DNA of 64,000 bases from Candidatus Poribacteria bacterium (lineage in GTDB: Bacteria; Poribacteria; WGA-4E; WGA-3G): assembly GCA_965242965.1 (NCBI GenBank), contig OZ251518.1, forward strand, positions 2,496,001-2,560,000, in the 5' to 3' direction. The translations under genes and the position numbers were made by a program. Positions 169-64,000 of the stretch are shown piece after piece. Positions within the stretch are counted from its first letter, which is position 1; each line of letters starts with the position of its first letter. The notes under the pieces were generated by a model that worked only from the letters and a program-made list of their open reading frames with translations, did no database searches and had not been told where the DNA came from.

Positions 169-1289
169 CACTACGTGCAGGCATCGTCGGGTGTGGTGGG
201 ATTAGCCGGAGCCACGCCGCCGCTTACGCAAATCTGGAAGATGTCCGCCTCGCCGCGCTGTGCGATATCAATCGCGAGGCACTCAACACTCGCGCCGATG
301 AATACGATGTCCCAAGCCGATACCTTGACTACGAGGAGATGTTCGCAACCGAGGAGTTGGATATCGTGAGCGTCTGCACACACGCGCCGTTGCACGCACC
401 TATCGCAATCGCCGCGGCGAACGCCGGCATCCACGTCTTATCCGAAAAGCCGTTGTCGGTGGATTTAGAAACCGCCGACCGGATGTTAGCGGCGTGTGAA
501 ACCGCGGGAGTCCACTTGGCAGTCAGTCATCAGTTTCGGTTTACGCCGCTGTTCCGGCATGCTAAAGCGTGGATTGACGAAGGACGCATCGGCGAACTCC
601 GTTCTATCCGCGAGGTAGGCAAGGGACGCGAAGCAGGATTTGAACTGATGGAGATGGGCGTTCACTATTTCGACGAGATGGACTTTTTCCTAGATGGCAT
701 CGCATGGATTCAGGCACACATCACCTATCAAGGACACGATGTCACGGCGGCGGACATTATGCACAGCAGTGAACTTTGCAAAACCGACCGGCGTGATAAC
801 GGTATCGTCGCGGGGGATACGATGCTGGTGCATATCGGCGGCGCGCGTGGAAACTACGGGATTATGGAACTCTACCGCCGTCCTCGCACACAGAATTGGA
901 TGATGGGCCCGCATCTTCTCGGTGCGGAGGGGCAACTCATCATCAAGCCTCACCCTGATACCGGCATCGATGAAATGTGGCACTGCCCCTCGGATGTCGC
1001 CTTTGCGGCGCATACCCCCGCATGGGAACGGGTAGAACTTGAACCCGAAGCGTCTCTTATCGCCGGAAAAGCGTGGCCGATGCGGCACACTATCTGGAGT
1101 GCCAAAAACATGCGCGACGCGATTCTCAACGGAACGGCACCCGAACTCGGCGGACGTAACGCGGTTACCTCGCTTGAGTGCGTCAGCGCAACCTATGTCT
1201 CCCATTTTAGTGGGACAAAAGTGCGGTTGCCCTTGACAGAACGGAGTCATCCGCTTGTGGCTATCTCTAACAGAGGAGAAACTATATGA
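165..1289 (+). CDS. Gfo/Idh/MocA family oxidoreductase
   Basis: GIVGCGGIS Rossmann motif, EKP motif, MGVHYFD. Start moved to ATG 165 (GGAG RBS, coupled to upstream stop). Confidence 0.9.
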   Translation: MTLRAGIVGCGGISRSHAAAYANLEDVRLAALCDINREALNTRADEYDVPSRYLDYEEMFATEELDIVSVCTHAPLHAPIAIAAANAGIHVLSEKPLSVDLETADRMLAACETAGVHLAVSHQFRFTPLFRHAKAWIDEGRIGELRSIREVGKGREAGFELMEMGVHYFDEMDFFLDGIAWIQAHITYQGHDVTAADIMHSSELCKTDRRDNGIVAGDTMLVHIGGARGNYGIMELYRRPRTQNWMMGPHLLGAEGQLIIKPHPDTGIDEMWHCPSDVAFAAHTPAWERVELEPEASLIAGKAWPMRHTIWSAKNMRDAILNGTAPELGGRNAVTSLECVSATYVSHFSGTKVRLPLTERSHPLVAISNRGETI

Positions 1290-2134
1290 AACTTGCTTTC
1301 TTTAACGACTACCAACTCGGTGTGGTAACGGATGCTGGCATCGTTGACATCGGCGATGCACTCAGCGGCATCTCGTATCGCACCCCGCAAGAATTGATGA
1401 AAACGGTGATAACGGATTTTGATAACCTGCGTCCGGCGATAGAGGACGCAGCCGAAAACGGCGAGGCAATCGCTGTCGATAGCGTCAGTTTTAAAGCACC
1501 GCTGCCGCGTCCGGGACAACTCGTCTGTATGGCAGGCAACTACATTGAACCCGATAGTCCGTCGCGCGGCGATTTCAACGCCTTCCTCAAATCGCCCACC
1601 GGCGTTATCGCCACGAACGAGACAGTTCAGTTGCCGAAGGCTGATGTTACCGTGTTTCACTTTGAGCCGGAACTCGCGATTGTCATCGGCAAAACGGCGA
1701 AGCATCTTTCTGAAGAAAATGCGTTAGATTGCGTGTTCGGTTACACGCAGTTTATTGACGTGTCGGCGCGCGGCTTGCCGGGCGGCTTCTTTTTAGGGAA
1801 GAGTTGGCATACGTTCGCACCGATGGGGCCCGCGCTCGTCACCGCTGACGAAGTTGCCGATGGAAACGCACTCGGCGTGAAACTCTGGATTAACGACAAC
1901 TTGCAACACGATTTCTCTACTAACTCCATGGCACGGTTTCTCCCCGAATTGTTGGCGGAGGTTACCAACGTGCTGACGCTGGAGCCAGGGGATATCGTAT
2001 CGACAGGGACGCATCACGAAGCACTCACCGCCATCGGCGATGGCGATACGGTGAAGTTGTCCATAGAAGGCTTCGGACCGGAACTGGCAGTCTCTGTGCG
2101 CGACCCGCTGAAAAGGACGGAGTGGCGCGGGTAA
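1286..2134 (+). CDS. Fumarylacetoacetate hydrolase family protein
   Basis: FLKSP, HFEPELAIVIGK, DVSAR, GKSWHTFAPMGP, LEPGDIVSTGT; GGAG RBS. Confidence 0.92.
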   Translation: MKLAFFNDYQLGVVTDAGIVDIGDALSGISYRTPQELMKTVITDFDNLRPAIEDAAENGEAIAVDSVSFKAPLPRPGQLVCMAGNYIEPDSPSRGDFNAFLKSPTGVIATNETVQLPKADVTVFHFEPELAIVIGKTAKHLSEENALDCVFGYTQFIDVSARGLPGGFFLGKSWHTFAPMGPALVTADEVADGNALGVKLWINDNLQHDFSTNSMARFLPELLAEVTNVLTLEPGDIVSTGTHHEALTAIGDGDTVKLSIEGFGPELAVSVRDPLKRTEWRG

Positions 2135-2142
2135 GAAAAAAC

Positions 2143-2172
2143 TTGACAATCGCACCGATTTTTGTGTATAAT
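2143..2172 (+). promoter_or_regulatory. Sigma70-type promoter
   Basis: TTGACA-N18-TATAAT upstream of the gene at 2267. Confidence 0.7.
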
Positions 2173-2266
2173 AATGTTGTCGTTCGCAATGCGTTTGGCG
2201 GACCGGGACATTTTGACGTTGTTAAGAATTATGCTTCCTGTTTTTTGACAATAAGGAGACTCATCA

Positions 2267-3193
2267 ATGAAAAAACCCAAAAATATCGTCGTTCTGGCAC
2301 TCTTCGCGGTTTTTTGCGCGTGGATAGCCGGATGCGGCGGCTGTAATCCGGAACCCATGCCGACTGGGATGAACCCTACGCAGGGCCCCGAGAACGGCGG
2401 CACAACCGTCCGGATTACTGGCGAAAAATTTGATATGAAAAACGGCGTAACCGTCACATTCGACGGGAAGGCCGCGCAAAGCGTGACAGTACCGAGCCAG
2501 ACAGAAATCAGTGCCGTGGCACCGGGCGGCATGGCAGGACAATCTGTCGCCGTTGTCGTCACAAACAAAGGGAAACCTGAAGTGCAGGCGACGGTGCCGC
2601 AGCAGTTCACCTACACCGATGCAACACCACCGACGGTGACAATGACAGAGCCGAGCGATGGCACTGTCTTCTCTGACTACGAAGATTCGCTGAATGTGCG
2701 AAATAGCCTCTCGGTGACGTTCAGCGAACCGATTAGCAGCGATAGTGTCTCAATCAGTGTGGCTGTGGCTAAAACAGAGGATGCCATGAGCGAGCCGATG
2801 GAGGCGATGCTCCCTGGCACCGTGAGCGGTATCGGTGATTCTGTAACGTTCACCTCCGACATGCCGATGCGCGCGGGCCGCATGTATACCGTCACCGTCT
2901 CCGGTGCCACTGACATGGCGGGCAATGCTCTCGCGAGTGCGCATAGTTTCAGTTTCAGTGTGACGAGCCCGGAGGCAGTCTACAAGTATTACGTTCAGGA
3001 AGAAGATATTCAGGACGGCAACGGTGAACCTGCGCTCAAACGCATCGCCGCGCGCCCTGAGATTTTTGATAATGCCGAACAGTGGGAACGACTGATTGCC
3101 GCAAATCAGGACTATTACGTCTTCGACCGGAAGAGACTGAGCATTGGGCAGTTGCTGCTGATTCCACGTGGCTCTGCCTGGGGCGATAAGTAG
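2267..3193 (+). CDS. Lipoprotein with IPT/TIG, Ig-like (Big_5) and LysM-like domains
   Basis: Lipobox IAGC; PTQGPENGGTTVRITG (IPT); DATPPTV...VTFSEPI...ATDMAGN (Big_5); YYVQ...W..L..AN...GQLLLIP (LysM-like). Confidence 0.8.
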   Translation: MKKPKNIVVLALFAVFCAWIAGCGGCNPEPMPTGMNPTQGPENGGTTVRITGEKFDMKNGVTVTFDGKAAQSVTVPSQTEISAVAPGGMAGQSVAVVVTNKGKPEVQATVPQQFTYTDATPPTVTMTEPSDGTVFSDYEDSLNVRNSLSVTFSEPISSDSVSISVAVAKTEDAMSEPMEAMLPGTVSGIGDSVTFTSDMPMRAGRMYTVTVSGATDMAGNALASAHSFSFSVTSPEAVYKYYVQEEDIQDGNGEPALKRIAARPEIFDNAEQWERLIAANQDYYVFDRKRLSIGQLLLIPRGSAWGDK

Positions 3194-3240
3194 CCTTCAT
3201 AAGCGCGCTTTGCAAGCGTGCACCGACTGACGAACTGACG

Positions 3241-3272
3241 AAAAAGCCGTGTAACTACTACACGGCTTTTTT
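3241..3272 (+). terminator. Intrinsic terminator
   Basis: aaaaagccgtgta-actac-tacacggctttttt hairpin with T-run. Confidence 0.8.
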
Positions 3273-3293
3273 CATCAAAGGAACACGAAAACG

Positions 3294-5015
3294 ATGTTTG
3301 GCACTCAAAACCATCCCGATAAACGCCTCGCTGAATACCGAAGCAATTTGACAGGCACCAAACACCTCCACCGCTTAACGCCGATGCGTCCAGTGCCGAA
3401 TCAACCGATTACAGTGCATGTCACAACCTCTGGCGGGCTCCCTTACGATGTTGTCCGCTGTTGGATAAACGAAACTGCGTTTGACCTTGGCGTGGATAAA
3501 ACGGAATGGAATTCGCTTGAATGGCGATACGTTCAGCATTGGCACGGGAAAATTCCTCCGCAACCCAGCGGCACACTTCTCAACTATCGCATTGGCGGAC
3601 GCGTTATGGGCTCGGATACATGGATTTTTGCGGACAACCAAGCGCGCACGAAATCCGCCGCAACCGAATTTGCCATTGCCATTGACGATTATGAGATACC
3701 CGAATGGGCACGCAACGCCGTTATCTACCATATTTTCCTTGACAGGTTTTATCCCGGCGATGGGGTGCCGTGGAAGAAACCGACGAATCTCTCCGGATTT
3801 TTCGGTGGCACGTTACGCGGCGCGATTCAGAAGTTGGACTACATCCAGTCGCTTGGATGCAACGCGGTTTGGCTCTCACCGCTCTTCGCGAGTCCCTCGC
3901 ACCACGGTTACGATGCGACAGATTACGATACGGTAGAACCACGGCTCGGCACGAACGCCGAGCTCCACGAATTAATTGACGAAGCACATCGACGCGGCAT
4001 CCGCATTATTATGGACTTCGTTGCCAATCACTGGGCTGACCAACATCCAACCTTTCAAGATGCACAGCGGGATGCAGACAGTGAGTATCGGGAATGGTAT
4101 ACGTGGCAGCGATGGCCTGATGAATACGCCAGTTTCTTCGGGGTGAAGGGGATGCCGCAGTTGAATCTGAAGCACAAACCGGCGCGCGATGCTTTGCTGG
4201 CGTGCGCGCAGCGGTGGCTACGCGCCGGTATTGATGGGTATCGGCTGGATTACGCACCCGGCCCGCCGCGTCCATTTTGGGCAGAATTTCGCATGGCGTG
4301 CAAATCAGTGAATCCTGACGCGTTTCTGTTTGGAGAGGTGGTGAGTCATTCGGAGGTAATCGCATCGTATCTGCCGCATTTCGATGGGTGCCTCGATTTT
4401 CCGTTGGCAGATGCACTCCGAAAAACGTTCGCGTTGGAAACGTGGACACTGCAGGAGTTTGAGGCGTTCCTCGCCGCGCATGAAAACTACTTCCCGGAGG
4501 GATTCGCGCTCCCGGCGTTTTTGGACAATCACGACATGACGCGCATCCTCTACTTGGCAAAAGAAAACAAAGCGAAGGTGAGGCTGGCGGCTTTAGTGCT
4601 TTTCACGCTTCCCTGCGCGCCTATCCTTTACAATGGCACGGAGGTAGGGCTCTCACAGCGAAATCCTCTCGGTAGATTTGAGGAAGCACGCTTGCCAACT
4701 CCATGGGGAGATGAACAGGATAAAACGCTGTTGGCTTATTTCCGCCGTTTAGGCGAACTGCGCAATCAGTTTCCAGAGCTTTCTTCAGGCAAAAGGGAGG
4801 CAGTTTACCTTGATATCGGGAGTGGCACCTATGCTTATCACCGAGGTAAGGTGTTAGTTGTTCTTAATACGAGTCGCGTTCCTCGCACACTGAATATGGC
4901 AGTGCCAAACCTTTCCGATACTGCTCAAGATCTTCTCAATGGGTATCCGGTGGAAGTTTCAGGAGATGTCGTGCGAATCTCACTTCCGGCACAGAGTGGT
5001 GCCCTCATCGCCTAG
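3294..5015 (+). CDS. GH13 alpha-amylase family (neopullulanase/cyclomaltodextrinase-like)
   Basis: IYHIFLDRF, HHGYD, DFVANH, GIDGYRLD, GEV, FLDNHD conserved regions. Confidence 0.92.
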   Translation: MFGTQNHPDKRLAEYRSNLTGTKHLHRLTPMRPVPNQPITVHVTTSGGLPYDVVRCWINETAFDLGVDKTEWNSLEWRYVQHWHGKIPPQPSGTLLNYRIGGRVMGSDTWIFADNQARTKSAATEFAIAIDDYEIPEWARNAVIYHIFLDRFYPGDGVPWKKPTNLSGFFGGTLRGAIQKLDYIQSLGCNAVWLSPLFASPSHHGYDATDYDTVEPRLGTNAELHELIDEAHRRGIRIIMDFVANHWADQHPTFQDAQRDADSEYREWYTWQRWPDEYASFFGVKGMPQLNLKHKPARDALLACAQRWLRAGIDGYRLDYAPGPPRPFWAEFRMACKSVNPDAFLFGEVVSHSEVIASYLPHFDGCLDFPLADALRKTFALETWTLQEFEAFLAAHENYFPEGFALPAFLDNHDMTRILYLAKENKAKVRLAALVLFTLPCAPILYNGTEVGLSQRNPLGRFEEARLPTPWGDEQDKTLLAYFRRLGELRNQFPELSSGKREAVYLDIGSGTYAYHRGKVLVVLNTSRVPRTLNMAVPNLSDTAQDLLNGYPVEVSGDVVRISLPAQSGALIA

Positions 5016-7936: not shown

Positions 7937-7959
7937 TTATGAGGAAGTTTTACATTTGC

Positions 7960-8222
7960 GGTAGGGAATTTGCCGAACGTCAACGGCAAACTCTCCTGCC
8001 TCAATCCAGCCAAGCAGTTGGGCATAACTTGTGATTCCGACAGACGAGACATGGGCGGGCACACGAGCCCGCATCACAACCTCCGTAGGCGCAGTTGCAA
8101 ACCGCGCATACCGGTGAGTTACCGTAGGGCGAGGGCCTGTCCCTCGCCTTGCATCAAAATCCGAATGAGGGTGGATGTCCATATCCGCCCTCTTCAGTAG
8201 GAGGGACCTCCTGGTCCCGACA
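7960..8222. repeat. Cluster of GTAG-type palindromic (REP-like) elements
   Basis: gtagggaatttgccg..cggcaaactctcc; gtaggcgcagttgcaaaccgcgc; gtagggcgagggcctgtccctcgcc; gtaggagggacctcctggtcccga. Confidence 0.75.
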
Positions 8223-29137: not shown

Positions 29138-31069
29138 CTACCTGTCCAGCGGGTTGGAACCGTTGCCCTGTTCTACATCAATAGGAAAAGATTCCGGACC
29201 CTTCTCCTGTCCTCTCCCAATCTCCTCTGTCACGATTTCAAAATCAACATGAACCTGCTCGTCATCGCCGCGCGTTAAAATTAGCCGCTCTTGAGTCTCT
29301 AAGTGCCTGCCTTCATTGGCATCGGCATCCTCAAAAAGCAGAATCTCCGCGTTTTCGTCGCAGTACAAGAAAGCGGCACTTCCGACATCAAAATGCAAGC
29401 CAGCGTCGTCGTCTTGTCCAAACGCGAGAATTGTCTCTTTCGTCAGTGTAAAGTATCGCTTCTCGCCGAGGGGCGTTCCGGCTGCAGTGACTTGCGCTAA
29501 CCCAATCTGGTGCTCAATCTGCGGCCCTGTTATCCATGCTTTTCCTCGGCGCAGGAGGAAAAACAGCGCGCCGATTAGCAGAATAAGGAGAGGAATAACC
29601 AATAGCCACATCGGAAAACCGCCACCCCCGCCTTGGAGTTTAAACGGCACACCGATTGTCGCAAATCTCGGGGTCCCCTCGTAAGTATACTCAATATCCA
29701 ATGCCAACTTGTTGCCATACCAATCCAAGTCGTTCTCTTTCGGCACCTTGACGCTGAACGGCGTGTCTAAACTATCCGGTGTGTTTGACACGCTCGCAGC
29801 GCAAAGTTTACGGCCGTCTTTATACTGGACGTGTGAGCGGACCTGGGTGATTTGGAAAGCACCTTTGTTAGGGCTCTCACTCTGAACAACGAGTTTTACG
29901 GAATACGCGTCCTCCGAGAAAACTAGTTCCAACTGTTTGGCTGGTTGACGCGGATTCTCCTGATGGGAGATATAGACGCTATCAATCACCGCTGTGTAGT
30001 TCATGAGCGGCACTGGATGGACTTTGTCCACGCCGTCGTAGGTATAGGTGACTTCAAGTTTCAACTGATTGCCGGGAGTAGCGAGCTCAGGATTGGCGGG
30101 GAACGGTATCCGGAGCGCGTAAGGCGGCGAACTGCTACCTAGTGGGACCGGGTTGAGTTGGAGTGCCTCAACTTCGTTGTCTTGGTTCGCGACTTGAAGG
30201 GGCTTGCGGTTGTTATCGACAACTTCCACGGTAAGGCTGTCCAATTGAAATTTCGCCTTCTGGGAGTTTTTAGTGTCAATGACAAGGGTTTCGCTGATAA
30301 ATTGCCCCGCGTTGTCCTCTGAAAGGGACAACTTTGTGGCGGGCTCATCGGGCTTCATCTGATTGGCGATGAAAATGGTATCGATGTCGCGTCGTTTCTG
30401 AAGCTTGCGAACCTCGATTTTGACGTGGTTATTGACGAGAATCCCTAAGACGAGTGGCGAGTAGTATTCTTCCTCGATTTCGGCGAGCCGCTTCAGGATG
30501 GAGGCGATGCCGGTATCGCTTTTGCCGCTGTTATCAATGTCACCATCTGTCACGAAGAGCCAATAGGTTTCGTCGTCTCCTTCGCGGTATAACTCGTTGT
30601 AGACTTCGGTTTCGGCGCGGAGGAGGTAAGAGACGAGGCCGTAGAAAGATTCCTTCATCCGCGTCGGATTGGGCAGCTGCTTCTGAAATTCCGCCTTGTT
30701 CACCGGTTTTCGGCTGATTTTTTCGTTCCGCTGCTTTGCATATTCGGCGTAAGTCAAGACATCGCCGTTTTGGTAGAGCGGTTTGCTGACGTAAGCAGCA
30801 TCGCCTTCCTTGATGTAGGTGTCGTCAATGTCGCGCAGCGGATGCGCGGCGTTGGTGAAAAGCAGGTTTGTCACGTAGTCGTTGACGCGCCGAATGTCAT
30901 CGGATTCCATATAGGTAGTGTAGGTATCCTTGCCTGTCTTGAGGCGGAACATGCTGCCGGACACATCGTAGATGACGATGATGTGTTTGGCGGCGACAGG
31001 CGCGGCACAGATTATTATCAAAACGAGCAGAACGGCGAAGAGCATTGGGTAGCGTGATACATTCGTCAT
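29138..31069 (-). CDS. Membrane-anchored vWA-domain protein with Ig-like repeats
   Basis: Signal peptide; IVIYDVSGSM (MIDAS DxSxS), FVTDGD; two similar beta modules; TM FPMWLLVIPLL..; cytoplasmic tail. Confidence 0.8.
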   Translation of the reverse strand: MTNVSRYPMLFAVLLVLIIICAAPVAAKHIIVIYDVSGSMFRLKTGKDTYTTYMESDDIRRVNDYVTNLLFTNAAHPLRDIDDTYIKEGDAAYVSKPLYQNGDVLTYAEYAKQRNEKISRKPVNKAEFQKQLPNPTRMKESFYGLVSYLLRAETEVYNELYREGDDETYWLFVTDGDIDNSGKSDTGIASILKRLAEIEEEYYSPLVLGILVNNHVKIEVRKLQKRRDIDTIFIANQMKPDEPATKLSLSEDNAGQFISETLVIDTKNSQKAKFQLDSLTVEVVDNNRKPLQVANQDNEVEALQLNPVPLGSSSPPYALRIPFPANPELATPGNQLKLEVTYTYDGVDKVHPVPLMNYTAVIDSVYISHQENPRQPAKQLELVFSEDAYSVKLVVQSESPNKGAFQITQVRSHVQYKDGRKLCAASVSNTPDSLDTPFSVKVPKENDLDWYGNKLALDIEYTYEGTPRFATIGVPFKLQGGGGGFPMWLLVIPLLILLIGALFFLLRRGKAWITGPQIEHQIGLAQVTAAGTPLGEKRYFTLTKETILAFGQDDDAGLHFDVGSAAFLYCDENAEILLFEDADANEGRHLETQERLILTRGDDEQVHVDFEIVTEEIGRGQEKGPESFPIDVEQGNGSNPLDR

Positions 31070-31070
31070 A

Positions 31071-32474
31071 TCAGTCTCCTAATAGATTCAGGCAAACGAG
31101 CCGGGCTTTGCACAGAATAAAGAGTTTGTTACTATATTGAATAGGCGCGGCAACGGGAGCAGGATTATCTGGTTTCCCCATGGCCAGTGATTGATGCAAC
31201 ACGGCGTGAGTGGGTTCAAGTCGCTGGATGGTAAGTCCAGCGGAATGCGCGGAATAAATTCGGTTGTTCACGGCAATTGAGCGGTGTGGGACAAACCGGG
31301 CTTGCGGGTTGTTCTGAGGTAAACTCTTCCCTGCGGAGAAAACAGCGTCCCCATTACTATCGCTCAGGTAGATATAGAGTGTTTGTCCCCCGCGGTCGGA
31401 CAGGAAGAGCCGCTGTCCATCGGTGAGCGGCGGATGAACAAAGAGGTTCAGATGTTGTTCTACATTTGAAACTTCGTCTAAAGTTGCCACGGGGGACAGT
31501 CGTTTGGTTCGCGGTTCATAACGGGCAAGACTGCGCCTTCGGCTTTCGGTATGCAAGGCTTCAAAATAGACGCTACTGCCGAGTGATGTAGGCGAGGAGA
31601 AGAATAGCGAGGGATAAGACTTGACGACGCTGTTAAAGGCTCCCTTCTCAATGTTAATCGCGAAGATACGTCCCTGTTTGCAGGTGAAAACGACATGCTC
31701 GCCACAAAGCGTGGGAGACGTGGGACCGTTGTCGACGTTGAAGAAAGCGTGCGGGATGTAGTGTCCGTTGCGGCTAACTAGTTCTAAGAACAATACGCCT
31801 TGTTGCGTGCCGACAATCATGGTTGGTTTGCCGGCGACATTGCATTTTAGCGGAGCGCATTCAGGCAGCGGTTGAATTTGGGCGGCATCCACTCCTCTTA
31901 TCTCAACGGGTTCCGATTTCCCATTTAAAACGGAGGTTTTGTGAATGCCGCCTGCAACGACGTAATAGAGATGGAGTCCATGGTAGATAGGCGTGCAGCC
32001 GTGCGTCAGCGGCGCGTCGAACGGAATACTCCATTGCCGCGAGAGGTGCTGTTGTTCTGGGTGCTTGGCAATGGTATAGGCATCCAAACTTTGTGCGTCA
32101 GGATTCGGCACAATGAGGAGTCCATCAACGGCGAGTAGCCCCGGTAAGCCTTCCGCTGTTTCTATCTTGGGCATCTCCACAGCCCCCGAAAAGAACCCAC
32201 AATTGTCGGCGAGTGGGACATCGGAGGATTCGCCTCCCGGCAGTACCGCGGTGCGCTGCGGATTCGCATACGCCATCTCCCAGGCCGCCGGTTTTTTAAG
32301 TTTTTGCCCACACTGCGTGCAAAAGCGAGCGAACGCGCGGTTCCAATGCCCATCAGGACATCGGAAGGCAACGGTAGCACACTGCTGGCAATACGCCACA
32401 TTTGAGGGGTGTCTGTCATTCGCCGCGGGCAAATCGCAGGCGGTGTTTTGGCGTGCAGTGGGACAGATGTTCAT
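31071..32474 (-). CDS. Double Zn-ribbon plus PQQ-like beta-propeller protein
   Basis: YCQQC..CPDGHWN..ARFCTQCG; W.M...NPQRT, SSP, PPL, APIQY propeller motifs. Confidence 0.7.
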   Translation of the reverse strand: MNICPTARQNTACDLPAANDRHPSNVAYCQQCATVAFRCPDGHWNRAFARFCTQCGQKLKKPAAWEMAYANPQRTAVLPGGESSDVPLADNCGFFSGAVEMPKIETAEGLPGLLAVDGLLIVPNPDAQSLDAYTIAKHPEQQHLSRQWSIPFDAPLTHGCTPIYHGLHLYYVVAGGIHKTSVLNGKSEPVEIRGVDAAQIQPLPECAPLKCNVAGKPTMIVGTQQGVLFLELVSRNGHYIPHAFFNVDNGPTSPTLCGEHVVFTCKQGRIFAINIEKGAFNSVVKSYPSLFFSSPTSLGSSVYFEALHTESRRRSLARYEPRTKRLSPVATLDEVSNVEQHLNLFVHPPLTDGQRLFLSDRGGQTLYIYLSDSNGDAVFSAGKSLPQNNPQARFVPHRSIAVNNRIYSAHSAGLTIQRLEPTHAVLHQSLAMGKPDNPAPVAAPIQYSNKLFILCKARLVCLNLLGD

Positions 32475-46441: not shown

Positions 46442-47419
46442 CTACTGATAGCGGACATCACGCAGTTTATTCTCATCTACGTAGATGCTCACCCGTGTGC
46501 TACCGAAAACCCGCACGCCTTGCTTCTCCAAGTCAATGACGGTGCCGGGGGCATATTTCCTGTCTACCACGGTGCGTTCGCCGTGTTCATCAACGACGAC
46601 GATACGGATGTGCCGCGACAGATTTCCTTCTTCGCTCACTTGATGCTTCAAGGGGAGTAGCCTGCCGATGTTTCTCGTGTTATCGCGCGTGCCGCTGACT
46701 TCCAATTGAACGATGCCGCCGCTTTGAACTAACTCGCCGGCTGCGGGTTTCTGCGTAATAATCCTCCCTTCCGGAATCTTCGGGTGCGGACTATATTGGA
46801 TGTCGGCGTGGAGCCCTGCTTCTTCTAGTTTTGGCATCACCTTACGTAGGGGTTGCGTGCGGAGATCTGGCAGCTGGATGCGCTGCGGCATCGCACCACG
46901 GCTGACCAGGAGGTTCACATCGCTGCCGCGCTGCTGCCCAACACCTTCCAGCGGCGTTTGCGCGATGACGGTGTCCGGCAGATACGCCGCCGAATGAACG
47001 TAGGCAACCCGATTCGGGCGAAACCCGGCGGCGGTGAGGGCAGCGCGCGCCTCATTCAAAGGTCTGCCGATAACTGAAATGACCGGGGCTAACTCAGCAC
47101 CGATGCTCACCGCAATTTCCACCGGCTGATAGGATTTTACCCGGAAGTTCGCCGGTGGATTTTGGGAGACGATTTCCCCTTTCGGCGCACTGTTACTTGC
47201 CTGCTGAATAGTCTCTGCCGGGCGCAACCCGGCTTCATCTAGCACGCGCACCGCCTCATAGTAGGTTTTTCCCGTGACGTTCGGGACAAGGACCTCTTCT
47301 GTGCGAACCCACCATGGAATCACGATGAGCACCGTCAGCAAGCCGACAATGCCGAGCACAATCAAGCAGTAGAGTGAGACTTTGAATATCGCAAATAAAG
47401 GGTTGTTGATGCCTTTCAT
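46442..47419 (-). CDS. PASTA-domain membrane protein
   Basis: N-terminal TM; three PASTA repeats (VPNVTG..A...L, SQNPPA, VSxG). Confidence 0.88.
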   Translation of the reverse strand: MKGINNPLFAIFKVSLYCLIVLGIVGLLTVLIVIPWWVRTEEVLVPNVTGKTYYEAVRVLDEAGLRPAETIQQASNSAPKGEIVSQNPPANFRVKSYQPVEIAVSIGAELAPVISVIGRPLNEARAALTAAGFRPNRVAYVHSAAYLPDTVIAQTPLEGVGQQRGSDVNLLVSRGAMPQRIQLPDLRTQPLRKVMPKLEEAGLHADIQYSPHPKIPEGRIITQKPAAGELVQSGGIVQLEVSGTRDNTRNIGRLLPLKHQVSEEGNLSRHIRIVVVDEHGERTVVDRKYAPGTVIDLEKQGVRVFGSTRVSIYVDENKLRDVRYQ

Positions 47420-48495: not shown

Positions 48496-49083
48496 TTAGA
48501 ACCGAATAAGCAGGATAGGCACTGCAACTCCCGCCGCCGGTTCATTTGCCCACCGATTGAGCCTATTTCCTGAAGGAACGAAAGGGATGGGTGTCCCTCG
48601 CGCTACGGTAATCGGGACATTATGAGGGAGACGCGCGACAGGGCCCTCTATCGGCTCGCCTTCTACCGGCTCGCCTTCTTCAGTCGGTGGCGATGGAGGT
48701 GGCGGTGGCGGTTCAGGCTCCGGAATGCGTGGGGCAGAAATGTCTACATCGCGCGTGCGCCACCAATCCCACACCCCGATGAACAACGATAAGGATGCCG
48801 CGCCGATGCCGATTATCCGATAATCCCGCGGCGACAACTCCGGCGCAATCTGATTTTCGCGATACATCTTGACACCGCGCACCACCAAATAACTTTGAAC
48901 GGCGGTAAATGGCACGGAACTCAGCGTGATAATTTCAAACCGACGCAGCGCGCTTTCGTGATAGGTTTCCGCGGGGCGCGCTTGCTGCTGTTGTCCTTCC
49001 GGCGGTGCCTGCTGCGCTTGCGCCGCCGGAAGTATTGAAAGAGTTAGGCTGAACGTTAATATCTGAACCGTTAATTTGAACAT
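48496..49083 (-). CDS. Hypothetical secreted/membrane protein with Pro-rich region
   Basis: Signal peptide from MFKLTV (GAGG RBS); ESALRRFEII.L.S.PF; TM. Confidence 0.65.
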   Translation of the reverse strand: MFKLTVQILTFSLTLSILPAAQAQQAPPEGQQQQARPAETYHESALRRFEIITLSSVPFTAVQSYLVVRGVKMYRENQIAPELSPRDYRIIGIGAASLSLFIGVWDWWRTRDVDISAPRIPEPEPPPPPPSPPTEEGEPVEGEPIEGPVARLPHNVPITVARGTPIPFVPSGNRLNRWANEPAAGVAVPILLIRF

Positions 49084-49159
49084 GGTTGCCTCGGCTCGCG
49101 AGGGACAGGCCCTCGCGCTTTGATATTTGGTATGAGGGAGATGTGCGGTACTCCCTCGC

Positions 49160-49663
49160 CTAGAAATTCTCTTCGTGCCGATGTCGGTTGCGGAAGAGGT
49201 AAACAATCAGCATCCCCGCGCCAATACACACCGACATATCGGCAACGTTAAATGTCGGCCAAAACAGCCCACGGCTCTCAATTCCAAATTGGAGAAAATC
49301 GACAACTTCTCCCAGGTAAAGCCTGTCAATAAAGTTTCCGATTGCGCCGCCGAGCAGAAAGCCAGAGGCGATTTGCATCCACCGGCTGTCACGGAATTTG
49401 AGAAAATAGACAAAAATGAAAGCGAGCGCGACAAACGTGACCAGGATGAGGAATGTCCGATGTCCGGCTAACACGCCGAAAGCCGCCCCGCTGTTCCTAT
49501 CGTGCCGAAGGTTGAAGAAACCGGGAATGACAGGGTAGCCGTATCCGCGTGGGATGTGCTGTTGGATGAGCCATTTGCTCCCCCAATCCAATGCCAGCAT
49601 CGGCAGTGCCACACCGATGAAAGGGAGCACAGTTTTCCACGTGAGGTTCTTAAATAAGTTCAT
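49160..49663 (-). CDS. lspA: Lipoprotein signal peptidase II
   Basis: D..SK, NSGAAFG, GGAIGNFIDR, VVDF, FNVAD. Confidence 0.95.
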   Translation of the reverse strand: MNLFKNLTWKTVLPFIGVALPMLALDWGSKWLIQQHIPRGYGYPVIPGFFNLRHDRNSGAAFGVLAGHRTFLILVTFVALAFIFVYFLKFRDSRWMQIASGFLLGGAIGNFIDRLYLGEVVDFLQFGIESRGLFWPTFNVADMSVCIGAGMLIVYLFRNRHRHEENF

Positions 49664-52271
49664 CCTTGAGCGACTCCCAGTCAGTTTTTGCGTCAGGTTG
49701 TGCCGGGGGCAGGTGTAGCCAGCGTGTCAGGAAAATGCTATTCGGGGCATCGGTTGCTGTTTTCTTCTGGCTTTTGCCACCTGTGCTTATCACCGGCGCG
49801 CTACAGAGATTGTATCCATACTCGGCTAAAAAAGGCGTGAGCGGCGCGAGACGTTGCAGGAGGACGGTGAGTATCGCGGAGAAGGTGCGCCGCGCCGCGC
49901 TAATCGTCGACTTGGGCCGTTTTGCTATCAACCGCGCGTAAACCCCCAGGTCGGCGTTGCAGAAGTCAACGAGGATACGCCACATTTCGTGGAAATTCCC
50001 CACCGGGTAAGCCTGTTGCACGGCTTGCATGCACGCCTCGGTCGCGGCGAGCGCGAGCGCGTCAATGCGGCGATGCTTATCCTTTGTCTCTCGCGAGGGG
50101 GAAATCGCTTTCCCTTTGACAACGGAAGAGTCATAGCCGCCGAGGGCTTGCAGTTCAACCGCCATTTTTTCCAAGATGCTTTGCAGCTGCTGGTATTCCG
50201 CGAGGCATTGCGCGAGGGCAGTCTTCATTTGCGTCCGATTTATGTCAGGCATTATCGCGGCGAGCCGTCCGACATCTGCCGGGTAGTCGTCAAAAAACGC
50301 GTCGTCTAGTGTGAAATCTCTAGCGCGCTTTGCTTCCACCGGGATGTTCCGGAGCATGAACTGCTTAAACGGTTGGCTCTCTTTAATCGGGCGGCTCCGG
50401 CTGAGGCAGGCGCAGAGAATGCTAGTTTCCGCTAACCACGTTGAAAATCCAGTCTGTGGCACAAAGGCGACGCTGACAAGCCCGCCCGGCGGTTTCTTGA
50501 AATCGGAACTGTTCACTGCCTGCAGCAGGTTCGCGAAGTGGCTATCAAGAAGCATCGCTTCCTTCCGGAATTCCTTTGAACCGCATTTCGGGCAGAACGT
50601 ATCGGCGGGTAAGAGTTCTTCAACGCTCAGACGGAACCAAAGATCTGCCCCGCGGCGGACAGCATCGCGGATAGCGAGAAGCGTATTTTTATCCGCCAGC
50701 GGTTCATCGCATTCGTCACAGAACAGAATCGGCAGCGGCATCCCCCATTGACGTTTCCCGGAGACTGGCAGTGCCGAGAAATTCGCTACGGCTTTGCGAG
50801 TTTCGTTCATCTCGGCATGTTCGGCTGCACCGTAATTATCCCAATAAATCTGCGCACGGAGCTCTTGCGCTGTCGGATGTTTTTTAGCAACGCCGAATAC
50901 CCAATGCGAACACGGCCGGAAAACCGCCGCTGTCTCACAGCGAGGACAGTGGTGCGCGTGCATCTCGTGCTCGCAACCCGGTGACTGGAGGAGGTATCCA
51001 AACCGTTCTAATTCGGGGGCGATGAGTTTCTCCGCGGCATAAAGATTTAAGCCGCACAGCGTGCCTGCCTCTTCGGTGAACCTGCCGGCATCGTCGAAAA
51101 TCGCACTTGAACTTTTGCCTAACTTCTGAGCGATGTAGTAACTCCGCGCATCGTGCGCGGGATTCAACGGAATCACACCGGTGTCGGAATAGGGGGTTTC
51201 TACCGCAAATCCATTCTTTTTCAGCATCGACGCGGCGTATGTGGAAACCGCTTTTGGCATGGCGATAATTTTCAACGTTTTCGATGGATAGAGGGGATGC
51301 GACACCTCGCTTTTGGCGAGCGCGTCACAAGAGACTTCCTCAATAATTTCCGGTACCGCCGCGCCTTCGGGGAGAGACGATTGGAAACGTTCCAATTGCT
51401 GTTTCGCAAATAAGAGATATTCCCCTTCAAACTGCGTGATGCAGTAGGTGGCGTTTTTGGTAATGCCGAGCTCCGTGATACCGGCTATCTCCCACAGGTG
51501 CGCTACTTGGACACAGAAGGAGACATCCAACCCGTAGTGTTCCAAGCCAATGCTGAACGGGAATTTTACATACGCAGGAAGCACGGTGGTGGTTACCTGT
51601 TCTGTCGCGGTTTCGTCAAGCGGCGCGATACATTTAGGGCACCAGGGGCTGAGTTGCGCCCTGTCCAGCAGATGCCGGTCTTCCCGCAAACGGCTGAGCA
51701 GCGGAATCAACTTCGCCTCCTGACGAAAATCGAGATTTTTTTGCCCGGTATCCCAATCGGCAAAGTTACCGAGTTGATGTAACCGCTCGCTTTGCGCTAC
51801 TACCCGCTCCTGATAAAGCGTGCGACAGTCCTTCCGCAGCCGCGCCGGGGAAACAGGCGTTTTAGCGGGTGCCTTCTTCGCGACATCGTCCTCAATTCGG
51901 ACAGGATATTTCTCCCAAGCGGGGATGTAAATCACTTGGTGGCCTTGCATCATCTCCGTTTTGAGGAAGATATCTTGGTGAATTTTCCGACACAGCGTGC
52001 TGAGCGTCAGCGTGTGGATAGGGGTAGGCATCTCACGAATGGCGTAGGTAATCGGATGCTGTGCCTCGTCTTCGGGATTTTCGGCACTGCGGCGTGCGGC
52101 GCGCGGCACCTTGGTAGTCTGCACCTTCCCGCGCACTACCGGGTAAACCTTCGCATTTGCCCAATGACGGAGGATTGTCTCTTCGCGTGAGCGGCCAGCG
52201 ACAGCGGCGCGCCGCTTTTGGCGGCCATTGGGTTGCGTATTTTTCTTAGGCGGTCTGCCTCTTTTTTTCAT
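49650..52271 (-). CDS. Degenerate isoleucyl-tRNA synthetase paralog (HIGH/KMSKS lost)
   Basis: IleRS remnants WCPKC, YVKFP, HCPRC, RQWGMPLP, CPKCG..FRKE..LLD.HF, YPADVGRL; sits in the ileS position between yggT and lspA. Confidence 0.75.
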   Translation of the reverse strand: MKKRGRPPKKNTQPNGRQKRRAAVAGRSREETILRHWANAKVYPVVRGKVQTTKVPRAARRSAENPEDEAQHPITYAIREMPTPIHTLTLSTLCRKIHQDIFLKTEMMQGHQVIYIPAWEKYPVRIEDDVAKKAPAKTPVSPARLRKDCRTLYQERVVAQSERLHQLGNFADWDTGQKNLDFRQEAKLIPLLSRLREDRHLLDRAQLSPWCPKCIAPLDETATEQVTTTVLPAYVKFPFSIGLEHYGLDVSFCVQVAHLWEIAGITELGITKNATYCITQFEGEYLLFAKQQLERFQSSLPEGAAVPEIIEEVSCDALAKSEVSHPLYPSKTLKIIAMPKAVSTYAASMLKKNGFAVETPYSDTGVIPLNPAHDARSYYIAQKLGKSSSAIFDDAGRFTEEAGTLCGLNLYAAEKLIAPELERFGYLLQSPGCEHEMHAHHCPRCETAAVFRPCSHWVFGVAKKHPTAQELRAQIYWDNYGAAEHAEMNETRKAVANFSALPVSGKRQWGMPLPILFCDECDEPLADKNTLLAIRDAVRRGADLWFRLSVEELLPADTFCPKCGSKEFRKEAMLLDSHFANLLQAVNSSDFKKPPGGLVSVAFVPQTGFSTWLAETSILCACLSRSRPIKESQPFKQFMLRNIPVEAKRARDFTLDDAFFDDYPADVGRLAAIMPDINRTQMKTALAQCLAEYQQLQSILEKMAVELQALGGYDSSVVKGKAISPSRETKDKHRRIDALALAATEACMQAVQQAYPVGNFHEMWRILVDFCNADLGVYARLIAKRPKSTISAARRTFSAILTVLLQRLAPLTPFLAEYGYNLCSAPVISTGGKSQKKTATDAPNSIFLTRWLHLPPAQPDAKTDWESLKDELI

Positions 52272-52354: not shown

Positions 52355-52636
52355 CTATGCCCCAAGCATCCGCGCCATAACATGTAACAACATGATGAGG
52401 ATAAACGGTGAAATATCAATGCCAAAATTCGCTGTCACCGGTTCAATCAGGCGGCGTATCGGGTTCAGCACCGGATCTACGAAGCTGCTCGTGAACCAAT
52501 AAATGCGCCTGACGGTAAAGTTGCTGCGCGGGCCAAAAACGAACCATGACAGAATGACATTGAGAAAAACGACGATGATGTAAATCTCAAGCAGTTGCTT
52601 GAGGGCTGTGGCGACAACTGTGGCGACAATGTCCAT
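52355..52636 (-). CDS. yggT: YggT family membrane protein
   Basis: ILSWF, DPVL.PIRR, GIDISP. Confidence 0.88.
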   Translation of the reverse strand: MDIVATVVATALKQLLEIYIIVVFLNVILSWFVFGPRSNFTVRRIYWFTSSFVDPVLNPIRRLIEPVTANFGIDISPFILIMLLHVMARMLGA

Positions 52637-61318: not shown

Positions 61319-64000
61319 TCAATTACCAAGCCCCATCCGATACTTAATATCGTAGTTGATAATGAAGTCTAATTCCTCCTCCGTGAAACCGTAGTGTTCA
61401 GCGAGAACGCGATCGATTTTGTCGATAATCGGTTTGGAATGACGCGGATAAAATTCATCATAGACGACGCGCCCGGTGGCTTTATACTGCGTCTCCTTGC
61501 GCCGCGCGTGACGCTTCAAATCTGCCATCAATTCATCGGTAAGCGCAGAGAGACGTTGTTTTAAAGACGCGTCCATTTGCGCAAGGCCGATTGGAAAATT
61601 CCGAATCTCACGTAGCGTCAAACTTCGGCAATCAGAAAGCACAACAAACCACCAATAAAAAAGCGAACTGTTCAAAGTCGCCACGACTGCCTTCGCATCT
61701 AGCGCGGTTGCTAAATGCAGAGATTTAACGCTTGTTGAGATGCTTTCACCCTTTCGTTCGTTCCAAAAGTAGGGAACGAAGTCCATTACCCGAATCCAAT
61801 AACGTGGCGCACTATGGAAATATATTGGGCTGGCATCTCGTCTCGTGGTGAGGTGTTGACTTAAGCTGAGAATCTCATCAATTTTTTCCCAGACGTTTTT
61901 TGCCACCTCACAGTGGATTTTGGGGAGCGAATTTTGAAACCACGTAACATCGGCATATTCCACAACTTCGAAGAGGTAGGCGCGGAATTTTTCGTTCCAT
62001 CGACGATAGAAAGAGGCGTATATTGGATTGGCGTAAGACCCCCCGCCTGTAGGCCCTCTATGACCTTCTGCTTCGGAAGGCGTATAGCCCACCTCAGAAG
62101 GCTTCAAACGCCTTTGAACGATATAAATTGCCAAACGTTGTTCTGCGCCGACAAAGAGTTTTGCCGGACGAATCGCGTATGTTTGAACCCATCCTTGTCT
62201 AGAGGAATAGAATAGATTCTGGAGAGGGACCATTCTATCGGTGCTGTAAGCCGTGTTCGGGATAATCATCGATTTCCAACCGTTCGGTTGTAGAAGCCGA
62301 AAACTTCTCTCAACCACAAACGCATAGAGATTGCCGCAACTCTCTGTTTCATACCCGCGAATCGCGTAATCCTTCCTCACCTTGCTATATTCCACATACG
62401 GCGGATTGCCGATAATCACGTCAAACCCACCCGCTTTCAGGATACCGTAAAACGCGATGAACCAGTGGAACGGCTGATGCGATGAAAGCCACTGCCGATA
62501 GTCGTTATCTTTCGTCGGATCCACCCCATAGTCTCCCGCAAGGTAGCCGTTCAGTTCATCGGCTAACGCTGCCAGTTTCTCTCGCAACGCCTGTTTGTCG
62601 TCCAGCGTTACATCGCCGCCCAGTTCTGTCTGTTGCTGACGAAACAGGGAAAAGAGCGCGTCAACGTCCTCGGCGCGTTCGCGGATGCGCGCCATCGTAT
62701 CGTCAAAATCGAACTGTCCGGTGACAGCGTTTTCTACCTCTTCGTAGGTAGCGTAGCCGACGAGGGTGTTGCCTGCCTGCACGTTGAAGTCAATGTCCGG
62801 CAGCGGTTCGATCTGGTTTACGTCATCGAGTTGTGCTACCATTTTGAGGAAGAGTCGCAGCTTGCAAATCTCGACGGCTTCGTCCATAATATCTACGCCG
62901 TAAAGGTTGTTGATAATGATGGATTTGAGGATGAAATAGCGGCGGCTCGGGTGTTGCGCGGTGCGTGCGAGGATGTCGCGGAAGTCGGTGTAGCGCGCGT
63001 GGGACGGCGAATTCGAGACCGGGAGGTCTCTCCTACTCTGTAGTTCAGGATCGCCTGATCCTGACCCGTTCGGGATGTCGGTTTTCATCGAGACCGGGAG
63101 GTCTCTCCTACTGGAAGCATCTGCCTCATCAACGAACGCTTGCATCCGTTCAAGGCACGCATCGTAGAGGGGCTCTAAGATATTTAAGGCGGCGAAGAGG
63201 AACGCGCCGGAACCACACGTCGGATCGAGGACGGTGACCTGCGTGATGGCATGCCAAAACGCGCGGAGCAGGTCTGGCCCTTCGCATGTCTCAATCACAT
63301 CTTGCGCGAATTGACGGATGTTGAGATTCTCCGTGATAAGCGCGTTGATGTCGGTTATCTCGCCAGTTTCCAATTTGGCATGCACGCGTTTGTAACGCTG
63401 CCGCCGCGCGATGACTTCACGCCAAATCTCTGTGGGCAGTGCATACGGATCCGGCGCAAGGGTATTCCATGCGGCGCGCTGGGAGACATCGTCGATGCCG
63501 ACAGCAACCTTCGGGGGTAAGGGGTGTTCGATGCCCTTTTTGACAGCATCGTAGATATACCGGGCTGGGGCAATTCGGAGCAGCCGCCAGACACTGGCAT
63601 CGCCTTCAAAAGCAACGCGGCATCCCTTGCGCGCCGCATCGAAAAGAAACGGGATAATCGTGTTCTGGCTGATATATTCGGTGATGTCCTCCTGCGTGTA
63701 ATAGGCACCCATCTGCTTCTGATTGATGTATTTCTCGAAGATATAGCCGAGGACATCGGGGTTGATTTCGGTGTCGTTGTGCAGCGGCCGTTCGTCAAGA
63801 TGCCACTGATACTGCTCAAAGAACGTGAAGAGTTGCTCGAACGCCTTATCGGGGATGTCAATGTCTTCGCCGTGCTGTTGCTCGATATGATGCAGCTGGA
63901 AGATGCCGCCGTTGAGATAGGGCACATTTCCGAGCATCCGGTTTGTCGCATCGGAACGTTCGGTTTTCGGTTTCGCGAAACCCTCAAAGAAGAGGGGACG
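61319..64000 (-). CDS. Type IIG-like (Eco57I-type, gamma-class N6-adenine) restriction-modification methyltransferase, 5' part outside window
   Basis: YLNGGIF, LGYIFE, GAYYT, DPTCGSGAF, YGVDI, IIGNPPY, NSSLFYW; frame open to the window edge. Confidence 0.9.
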   Translation of the reverse strand, partial: RPLFFEGFAKPKTERSDATNRMLGNVPYLNGGIFQLHHIEQQHGEDIDIPDKAFEQLFTFFEQYQWHLDERPLHNDTEINPDVLGYIFEKYINQKQMGAYYTQEDITEYISQNTIIPFLFDAARKGCRVAFEGDASVWRLLRIAPARYIYDAVKKGIEHPLPPKVAVGIDDVSQRAAWNTLAPDPYALPTEIWREVIARRQRYKRVHAKLETGEITDINALITENLNIRQFAQDVIETCEGPDLLRAFWHAITQVTVLDPTCGSGAFLFAALNILEPLYDACLERMQAFVDEADASSRRDLPVSMKTDIPNGSGSGDPELQSRRDLPVSNSPSHARYTDFRDILARTAQHPSRRYFILKSIIINNLYGVDIMDEAVEICKLRLFLKMVAQLDDVNQIEPLPDIDFNVQAGNTLVGYATYEEVENAVTGQFDFDDTMARIRERAEDVDALFSLFRQQQTELGGDVTLDDKQALREKLAALADELNGYLAGDYGVDPTKDNDYRQWLSSHQPFHWFIAFYGILKAGGFDVIIGNPPYVEYSKVRKDYAIRGYETESCGNLYAFVVERSFRLLQPNGWKSMIIPNTAYSTDRMVPLQNLFYSSRQGWVQTYAIRPAKLFVGAEQRLAIYIVQRRLKPSEVGYTPSEAEGHRGPTGGGSYANPIYASFYRRWNEKFRAYLFEVVEYADVTWFQNSLPKIHCEVAKNVWEKIDEILSLSQHLTTRRDASPIYFHSAPRYWIRVMDFVPYFWNERKGESISTSVKSLHLATALDAKAVVATLNSSLFYWWFVVLSDCRSLTLREIRNFPIGLAQMDASLKQRLSALTDELMADLKRHARRKETQYKATGRVVYDEFYPRHSKPIIDKIDRVLAEHYGFTEEELDFIINYDIKYRMGLGN

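Follow-up and report, generated by a model that had tools for sequence, protein, structure and literature searches.

The stretch of DNA analysed here is a window of 64,000 nucleotides (nt) of Candidatus Poribacteria bacterium (GCA_965242965.1, contig OZ251518.1). Its subject is a minus-strand gene for a protein of 873 amino acids (aa) that resembles type-1 isoleucyl-tRNA synthetase (IleRS1) and lies directly upstream of lspA, the gene for signal peptidase II (Table 1). The gene descends from IleRS1 and has lost all signature motifs of that enzyme, a type-2 enzyme (IleRS2) is encoded elsewhere in the genome, and the gene is retained phylum-wide under purifying selection with a distinct domain pattern; in this combined account our confidence is high. 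We use the term pseudo-synthetase for the product, as it coexists with an active IleRS2, has a ratio of nonsynonymous to synonymous change (omega) of 0.14 and is found in 105/121 genomes of the phylum. The same term had been chosen in a sequence-only reading of the window, which preceded this analysis, and it appears justified by every motif test described below.

The IleRS1-like gene and its lost motifs

The open reading frame (ORF) is uninterrupted over its 873 aa, as the sequence-only reading had described, but it lies on the minus strand. A plus-strand gene over the same positions was ruled out, as that reading contains stops throughout. Two Pfam models were matched above threshold, namely tRNA-synt_1 (PF00133; 68.7 bits over residues 94-583, threshold 22.7) and Anticodon_1 (PF08264; 36.0 bits over residues 740-860, threshold 25.1). 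The NCBIfam ileS equivalog TIGR00392 gave 171.9 bits, below its cut-off of 621.4, and the same gene scored 145.3 bits in a six-frame search of the genome with that model. By sequence, the nearest solved structures are the type-1 IleRS 8c9e (92.7 bits), 8c9f and 1ffy, over query residues 93-580. A total of 7996 candidates were scored, and 207 of them matched as homologues at E ≤ 1e-3, a recurrence of the family far beyond chance; the 120 matches listed of these 207 are 837-957 aa long. In the source annotation the homologues are named 'class I tRNA ligase family protein [Candidatus Poribacteria bacterium]'.

An AlphaFold2 model was built with an alignment of 44 sequences. In Foldseek, 8c9f came first (E-value = 6e-28) and the top 18 rows were all IleRS, so that the predicted fold appears to match IleRS best in the comparison that the sequence-only reading had proposed as a check. 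VIA-align placed IleRS chains at Z ~21 with 600-627 aligned residues and 17-20% identity, the matches covering residues 25-873, and LeuRS chains at Z 20-27 over ~500 residues. Since both synthetases match, the fold indicates class Ia, and it is sequence and locus that assign the protein to IleRS1. The first connective-polypeptide insertion (CP1), which carries the editing-domain fold, is modelled with the highest confidence, and confidence is good for the anticodon-binding helices too. Disorder is predicted for residues 1-26, where the predicted local distance difference test (pLDDT) is <50, and for residues 47-70. The former KMSKS region is poorly defined (pLDDT <50 at 572-596 and 606-636). 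Collinearity with IleRS1 over the full length, claimed from the start, is borne out by Pfam, the ileS model, the solved relatives and Foldseek alike.

Table 1. Features of the pseudo-synthetase and of neighbouring genes, in positions of the window.
Feature	Position	Strand	Basis or remark
Pseudo-synthetase coding sequence	49650..52271	minus	873 aa + stop, ATG start; ORF list and translation
Lys/Arg-rich tail, residues 1-27 (MKKRGRPPKK...)	52191..52271	minus	net charge +11; predicted disordered
First Rossmann half, residues 75-200	51672..52049	minus	alignment to canonical IleRS1; PAWE replaces PGWD
Dead HIGH site IREMPTPIHTLTLSTLC, residues 78-94	51990..52040	minus	alignment to canonical IleRS1
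CP1/editing-domain fold, residues 201-400	51072..51671	minus	VAHLWEIA, GVIPLNPAHD; C211, C214
CP-core return, residues 401-500	50772..51071	minus	C442, C445 complete putative Zn site 1
Second Zn-knuckle segment, residues 501-570	50562..50771	minus	RQWGMPLPIL, CDEC, CPKC
Second Rossmann half, residues 571-660	50292..50561	minus	DxWFDSG, DQ ribose motif and KMSKS lost
Helical anticodon-binding domain, residues 661-830	49782..50291	minus	Pfam Anticodon_1; confident model helices
Short C-terminal tail, residues 831-873 + stop	49650..49781	minus	C-terminus comparison with canonical IleRS1 and G002
lspA (signal peptidase II)	49160..49663	minus	Pfam Peptidase_A8, 140 bits; TIGR00077, 119.6 bits
YGGT-family gene	52355..52636	minus	directly upstream of the pseudo-synthetase; Pfam YGGT
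236-aa ORF	48496..49206	minus	directly 3' of lspA
325-aa PASTA protein	46442..47419	minus	three PASTA repeats
872-aa N6-adenine DNA methyltransferase	61319..63937	minus	Eco57I/PglX-like

The motif comparison used two alignments, one (MAFFT) of 70 sequences, among them canonical IleRS1 representatives taken from a library of 1.84 billion proteins, and one of 16 copies from the phylum with six canonical enzymes. In both, the HIGH region HDGPPYANGxIHxGH is replaced by IREMP-TPIHTLTLSTLC; PPYANGxIHxGH is aligned with P-TPIHTLTLST, where Thr stands at both His positions (T89, T92) and the loop has one residue less. In place of WTTTPWT the protein has VAHLWEIA, and in place of GTGxVHxAPGHG it has DTGVIPLNPAHD (also quoted as DTGVIPLNPAHDA). 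Additionally, DVWFDSG has become LDSHFANLL and the ribose-binding DQ motif EGSDQHRGWF has become FVPQTGFSTWLAE, two losses that were absent from the list of the sequence-only reading. No K[MLI]SKS occurs anywhere in the 873-aa protein, the aligned segment being VEAKRARDF, which varies in length within the family. The editing site has lost its Thr-rich peptide, and R376/S377 are aligned with the two aspartates of GEDDF in P. megaterium IleRS1, the second of which we take to be the conserved catalytic Asp of the editing site. Finally, the C-terminal junction domain and Zn finger are missing, the protein stopping ~40 residues past the anticodon-binding domain; canonical IleRS1 representatives terminate in CxxC...CxxC, and the basal orthologue of the phylum (genome G002) likewise keeps CERC...CHKC. 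A replaced HIGH, an absent KMSKS, degenerate editing motifs and a missing C-terminal Zn finger had all been named beforehand, and each of these descriptions agrees with the alignments.

Retention of the internal Cys pairs, the other half of that description, was found as well. C211/C214/C442/C445 (putative Zn site 1) and C518/C521/C560/C563 (site 2) are invariant in 44/44 aligned family members. The same columns hold Cys in 24-31 of 31 canonical IleRS1 representatives per column (26-27 for C442 and C445 of the CP core), and judged by these alignments the internal CxxC pairs are ancestral IleRS1 features. Across the 44 family sequences, whose identity goes down to 34%, 115 columns are invariant. 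Invariant residues of the first Rossmann half are E80, P82, Q99, D100, F102-K104, P117 and W119, and the fixed motifs specific to the family are REMP, QDIFLK, RQWGMPLPIL and SRSRPIKESQPFKQ.

The Ile-AMP contacts of C. albicans IleRS, as given in the consulted part of PMC7191050, were placed on the family via fixed motif spacing. None of the contacts to AMP is left: T89 stands in the place of His61, T92 of His64, P605 of Asp571 and A602/F603 of Glu568, and there is no KMSKR loop. Concerning the amino-acid subsite, Pro53 may have its counterpart in the invariant P82 and Asp92 in the nearly invariant E120, and Gln572 and Trp576 possibly correspond to Q606 and W612. The latter mapping is uncertain because the Q...W spacing is off by at least two residues and varies within the family. 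Survival of these residues while the AMP contacts vanished would suit a HisZ-like amino-acid sensor or regulatory subunit, whose cleft would bind isoleucine or a similar amino acid without activating it and pass the signal on to a partner protein or a nucleic acid. However, the alignment to DQxRGW is ambiguous precisely there, the conserved Pro and Trp may be purely structural, and no partner is evident in the neighbourhood, which comprises housekeeping genes. A sensor is unlikely.

The remodelled Rossmann cleft could also serve a new enzyme, for example an aminoacyl-tRNA-dependent transferase of the SbzA kind or a Zn-dependent reaction, as REMP, TLxT, PQ...WLAE and SRSRPIKESQPFKQ are strictly conserved exactly at the old active site. 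Yet these seemingly new motifs differ between families of the phylum, and the KMSKS half is the most relaxed and the worst-modelled part of the protein. Furthermore, SbzA keeps HYGH and AMSKA according to the consulted part of PMC12945691, whereas the window protein has neither, and the neighbours pgeF, yggS, proC, YGGT, lspA and fmt are housekeeping genes and form no biosynthetic cluster. We regard a new enzyme as quite improbable.

Resident IleRS2, descent and the ileS-lspA locus

The genome of the window (5.70 Mb, two contigs) holds one locus above the ileS cut-off, with 967 bits (C1:2047132-2049666), ~496 kb from the pseudo-synthetase. It encodes an IleRS2 of 1114 aa on the minus strand (ORF 835..4179 of locus L001, genome G000) that keeps WTTTPWT, GTGLVHIAPAFG, DCWFDSG, DQTRGWF and KMSKS. 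Among solved structures it matches P. megaterium type-2 IleRS best (1012-1024 bits, compared with 342-350 bits for type-1 IleRS), and the top match is 8c8w, a hyper-resistant HIGH-motif mutant. In place of HxGH it carries GVHH, a non-canonical signature of the G/AXHH type, which is linked to mupirocin hyper-resistance in the part of PMC10485003 at hand. The sequence-only reading had expected the true IleRS activity to come from elsewhere and had suggested a search for a second ileS, and this intact gene supports that expectation. Within the phylum, a canonical IleRS above the ileS cut-off was found in 119 of the 121 genomes sampled. Two kinds can be told apart: the first scores 908-998 bits to the ileS model, with frames that range from 770 aa, truncated by a contig end, to 1146 aa and mostly measure 1045-1118 aa; the second, in f2-g8 and f3, gives a two-piece match summing to ~670-700 bits, with frames of 1120-1194 aa.

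As GVHH in the resident enzyme suggests past exposure to mupirocin-type inhibitors, a dead IleRS1 might be thought of as a decoy that soaks up such inhibitors of IleRS1. However, mupirocin mimics Ile-AMP and forms hydrogen bonds with the KMSKS loop in IleRS1, as stated in the consulted part of PMC10485003, and the window protein retains neither the HIGH loop nor KMSKS nor the ribose contacts; moreover, IleRS2 already confers resistance. Such a decoy is therefore very improbable.

The 121 genomes were sampled from the phylum of the window (Poribacteria by source annotation) and searched with the window protein as query (E ≤ 1e-20). A copy was found in 105 of them, and no match has an internal stop. 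By family, copies occur in 81/81 genomes of f1 plus the genome of the window, 15/19 of f3, 3/3 of f4, 4/4 of f5 and 1/1 of f6; at this threshold f2 (0/9), f7 (0/2) and f8 (0/1) gave no match. The basal copy of G002 (f7), which this query missed, scores 445 bits to the ileS model and is likewise sub-threshold. Every copy examined in the phylum is degenerate at all six motifs, with replacements that differ between families: the HIGH site reads LREMP in f1, f3 and most of f4, HDIPRPP in f5 and IHTPPAK in f7, and the f7 copy retains an N-terminal TLNLPK besides its C-terminal Zn finger.

Descent was examined in a tree of 73 rows (IQ-TREE, LG+G4, SH-aLRT branch support), rooted on the IleRS2 of the window's genome. 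Beside this outgroup it contained 16 phylum copies and 25 degenerate and 31 canonical representatives, chosen from P0127-P0199 by a length of 700-1100 aa; fragments and five full-length rows were excluded. A single clade (SH-aLRT 100), nested in canonical IleRS1 and with G002 basal, unites all 16 copies of the phylum with 12 metagenomic representatives, a topology to be read with long-branch attraction among degenerate sequences in mind. The shared locus supports a single origin of the phylum copies independently of the tree, and the pseudo-synthetase descends from IleRS1.

A second, separate clade in the same tree (SH-aLRT 99) comprises ten degenerate IleRS1-like metagenomic representatives (P0135, P0143, P0150, P0165, P0166, P0169, P0171, P0173, P0190 and P0191), in which HIGH and KMSKS are gone and GWDCHGLP, DQxRGWF and the C-terminal Zn finger are kept. 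Three further degenerate sequences (P0141, P0176 and P0192) sit singly beside canonical ones. An alignment search of genome contigs for relatives of the second clade keyed on the canonical motif FVPGWDCHGL and led to 80 loci of ordinary IleRS1, which come from many phyla and show 35-42% identity, and a protein Atlas search with P0150 and the window protein yielded generic IleRS/ValRS clusters only.

The locus itself is conserved. In the window, lspA follows directly downstream and overlaps the end of the pseudo-synthetase frame by 14 nt. It adjoins the 3' end of the gene in 19/20 f1 loci and in 13/13 distant loci inspected, all 13 of which show the block pgeF-yggS-proC-(YGGT or DivIVA)-IleRS1-like gene-lspA-small secreted ORF-def/fmt-PASTA protein. 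The pseudo-synthetase thus occupies the ancestral ileS slot upstream of lspA. In f2 and f3-g7 genomes no IleRS1-like copy is present and the locus reads proC-YGGT-lspA-small ORF-def-fmt (loci L140-L142 in G010, G001 and G003), with a gap of only ~180 nt in G010. As f3-g9 and f3-g11 keep the gene, at least two independent losses have to be assumed.

Searches for regulatory elements gave little. No Rfam match at E ≤ 0.1 was found between 44000 and 58000 in the leader and riboswitch search, and between 48300 and 53700 neither the five promoter-like sites (2.8 +/- 1.9 in shuffles) nor the six terminator-like sites (7.3 +/- 2.9 in shuffles) offered anything usable. Concerning the other genes of the window, the 236-aa ORF behind lspA has no Pfam or NCBIfam match; an ORF with a signal-peptide-like hydrophobic start is conserved in that position across the phylum, including lineages that lack the pseudo-synthetase. 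The PASTA protein, which follows fmt in the conserved block, matches only positions 338-563 (C-terminal) of the Stk1/PknB PASTA-kinase model and contains no kinase domain. The methyltransferase gives weak matches to PglX of the BREX system, far under the cut-offs. Additionally, positions 6001-8000 and 30001-32000 of the window stand out by a low-GC stretch (0.446, compared with ~0.53 elsewhere) and a local GC-skew spike (+0.157).

Selection and the N-terminal tail

Pairwise omega was estimated by the Nei-Gojobori method on coding sequences from 20 f1 loci, using 43 pairs with a synonymous divergence (dS) of 0.05-1.2. The median was 0.141 for the pseudo-synthetase, 0.050 for IleRS2 and 0.087 for lspA of the same genomes; between the genome of the window and its congener, the pseudo-synthetase shows an omega of 0.20 at dS 1.09. 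Domain by domain, in 42 pairs that are not independent of each other and with an approximate method and approximate domain borders, omega of the pseudo-synthetase compared with IleRS2 was 0.047 against 0.016 in the first Rossmann half, 0.126 against 0.077 in CP1/editing, 0.072 against 0.025 in the CP core, 0.108 against 0.011 in the KMSKS half and 0.28 against 0.074 in the anticodon-binding domain. The largest relaxation relative to IleRS2 is therefore that of the ATP/KMSKS half, ~10-fold, and the smallest that of the editing-domain fold, 1.6-fold. In the second Zn-knuckle segment (residues 501-570) the constraint rose, with an omega of 0.018 compared with 0.070 for the equivalent 70 residues of IleRS2, and this segment is the most constrained part of the protein. 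The departures specific to this paralogue are those of the KMSKS half and of the second Zn knuckle only. Of the two readings weighed above, the sensor would draw on the tight constraint of the first Rossmann half, and a new enzyme on a Zn-knuckle segment held more strictly than in the active enzyme.

These values also bear on a decaying relic, or on a frame kept only for the transcription or translation of lspA. The gene pair ileS-lspA is an ancestral operon, the overlap of stop and start suggests translational coupling, and some lineages have lost the gene. Nonetheless, omega amounts to 0.14 for the whole gene and to 0.02-0.05 for the core, the copies of 105 genomes are free of internal stops, and 115 columns are invariant in 44 sequences. 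As lspA is still in place in the lineages without the gene, it can do without the pseudo-synthetase. A decaying pseudogene was rejected, being contradicted by the selection data, and the whole alternative is hardly credible. The dN/dS check suggested in the sequence-only reading, which held the gene to be kept, thus came out in its favour: this is a constrained pseudo-enzyme and not a decaying gene.

The translation begins with MKKRGRPPKK, as had been reported, and the first ATG yields a basic N-terminus in 20/20 f1 loci. The tail has a net charge of +11 in the window protein and a family median of +7, and its omega is 0.32. An AT-hook has the core R-G-R-P flanked by basic residues, a consensus that KKRGRPPKK fits, and in a tail predicted to be disordered such a hook could hold AT-rich DNA, with the IleRS body as scaffold of a DNA-binding regulator. 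However, RGRP occurs in 6/121 homologues, the usual tail of the family being MKKRNSxAKSTTRKRGK, the tail itself is confined to f1, and Pfam gave no AT_hook match at E ≤ 0.01 in the window protein. The AT-hook-like N-terminus of the sequence-only reading is consequently not supported as stated: as far as these homologues tell, the resemblance to an AT-hook would have arisen by chance at the level of the genus, in a polybasic tail shared at the level of the family. An AT-hook regulator is very unlikely.

Interpretation and comparison with known systems

The explanation we favour, at somewhat better than even chances, is that a displaced IleRS1 has been retained as a non-catalytic binding protein. 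Its ancestor would have been the housekeeping type-1 IleRS of the phylum, in the ileS-lspA slot. After a type-2 IleRS had taken over aminoacylation, the old copy would have lost its synthetic site (HIGH, KMSKS and the ribose-binding residues) and its editing site, and in f1 also the C-terminal domains that read the wobble base of the anticodon, while the class-Ia fold and the two Zn knuckles would have been kept under purifying selection. The pseudo-synthetase has probably acquired a new non-enzymatic role. The surface at work would comprise the connective-polypeptide module (Zn knuckles, CP core and dead editing domain) and the remodelled cleft. More tentatively, and with odds that fall short of even, the ligand might be an RNA 3' end or the acceptor arm of a tRNA, bound without discrimination of the anticodon; in f1 only, the disordered polybasic tail would add unspecific affinity for polyanions. 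The basis of this suggestion is the basic tail together with the grip of class-Ia editing enzymes, which hold the 3' end of the tRNA between catalytic domain, CP core and editing domain according to the consulted part of PMC11685878. The same part describes the bacterial Zn-binding C-terminal domain as essential for N34 recognition.

Several observations weigh against retention as a binding protein. The AlphaFold2 model is of moderate quality (pLDDT 67.8, predicted template modelling score 0.52), and the omega values are pairwise Nei-Gojobori estimates from pairs that are not independent, with domain borders that are approximate. Stronger conservation of the core than of the anticodon-binding domain is also true of the active IleRS2. 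The basic tail is absent from the f3, f4, f5 and f7 orthologues in the phylum alignment, and being confined to f1 it cannot explain retention across the phylum or a shared function. The rest of the protein ranges from neutral to acidic in the family (median net charge -13, isoelectric point 6.1), so the body gives no sign of a general nucleic-acid-binding surface. Clean excision in f2 and f3-g7 means that the gene is dispensable in some lineages. Finally, neither the ileS model nor the IleRS2 protein found a canonical IleRS in G009 (99% complete, 120 contigs) or in G119 (81% complete).

The last observation, with the conserved core, would speak for a still-active IleRS with unorthodox motifs, or for the pseudo-synthetase as sole IleRS of some genomes. 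An assembly gap is the likelier cause in these two genomes, as IleRS2 was found in each of the 30 other g2 genomes searched. The pseudo-synthetase has lost both class-I signatures, the two ribose contacts and its editing site, IleRS2 is present in 119/121 genomes including that of the window, and the ileS model gives 172 bits where 621 are required. For the window's own genome the idea of a sole IleRS was rejected, its IleRS2 scoring 967 bits. Activity as an IleRS has next to no probability.

The second clade and the scattered degenerate sequences suggest that the phenomenon may be recurrent. It is conceivable, if unlikely, that IleRS1 scaffolds were repeatedly recycled after IleRS2 takeover into a so far unrecognised class of Zn-knuckle-based non-aminoacylating proteins. 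With the same low probability, that class would have a new function, as a tRNA/RNA-responsive or amino-acid-responsive regulator or through an activity of the remodelled cleft, Poribacteria, the second clade and the scattered sequences being independent instances of it.

In full-text literature searches, neither a dead IleRS1 paralogue nor an IleRS of Poribacteria was found described, and a 2026 preprint on the IleRS C-terminus does not mention Poribacteria, pseudogenes or paralogues, nor the words inactive or degenerate. Among synthetases, dead paralogues that took on new roles have been described in a few families (HisZ, SLIMP, LeuRS-I), and none is reported for IleRS in the consulted parts of reviews and phylogeny papers. 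The present case is that of a displaced essential gene whose chemistry was lost while constraint persisted through the history of the phylum and the ancestral locus was held. It can be read as a natural experiment that shows where in a class-Ia synthetase non-catalytic function resides, here in the Zn-knuckle/CP module and not in the ATP site. In practice, a gene of this kind can be taken for a functional IleRS wherever genome annotation or completeness estimates rely on counts of 'class I tRNA ligase' matches. Expression and assay of the protein do not require a cultivated host.

Among known systems, the consulted part of PMC9437257 names IleRS2 and SbzA as duplicates of IleRS, and LeuRS-I, SLIMP and HisZ as non-aminoacylating paralogues of synthetases. 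Compared with the canonical type-1 IleRS (TIGR00392; 8c9e, 1ffy), the pseudo-synthetase shares the domain order, the CP Zn knuckles, the slot upstream of lspA and the position in the tree, but it fails the family cut-off and is without catalytic and editing motifs and without the junction and Zn-binding domains. Bacillaceae likewise carry ileS1 and ileS2 in one genome, with ileS1 at a conserved locus, but both enzymes are active there, whereas here the ileS1 descendant is degenerate across the phylum; in the 278-sequence tree, as far as the consulted part of that study goes, ileS1 and ileS2 occur together only in Bacillaceae (Zanki et al., 10.1101/2022.02.09.479832). SbzA is also an IleRS homologue with a non-translational role, but judging from the consulted parts of PMC12945691 and PMC9437257 it has HYGH, AMSKA and weak aminoacylation, is IleRS2-like and belongs to a biosynthetic gene cluster, none of which applies here. 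HisZ and SLIMP are likewise non-aminoacylating paralogues kept as regulatory or binding proteins, and SLIMP keeps tRNA binding; unlike the pseudo-synthetase they are of class II, much smaller and have known partners, HisG and SerRS2/LON respectively (PMC9437257, in part). The closest analogue is LeuRS-I of Sulfolobaceae, a full-length class-Ia paralogue retained beside the active enzyme, with a disrupted CP1 editing domain, a divergent C-terminus and no tRNA aminoacylation in the account of the same excerpts. LeuRS-I still forms leucyl-adenylate and binds tRNA-Leu (PMC9437257, in part), whereas adenylate formation would not be expected of the window protein because HIGH, KMSKS and the ribose contacts are lost. 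The pseudo-synthetase further differs from LeuRS-I in being derived from IleRS1, bacterial, and placed at the ancestral locus rather than as an extra copy.

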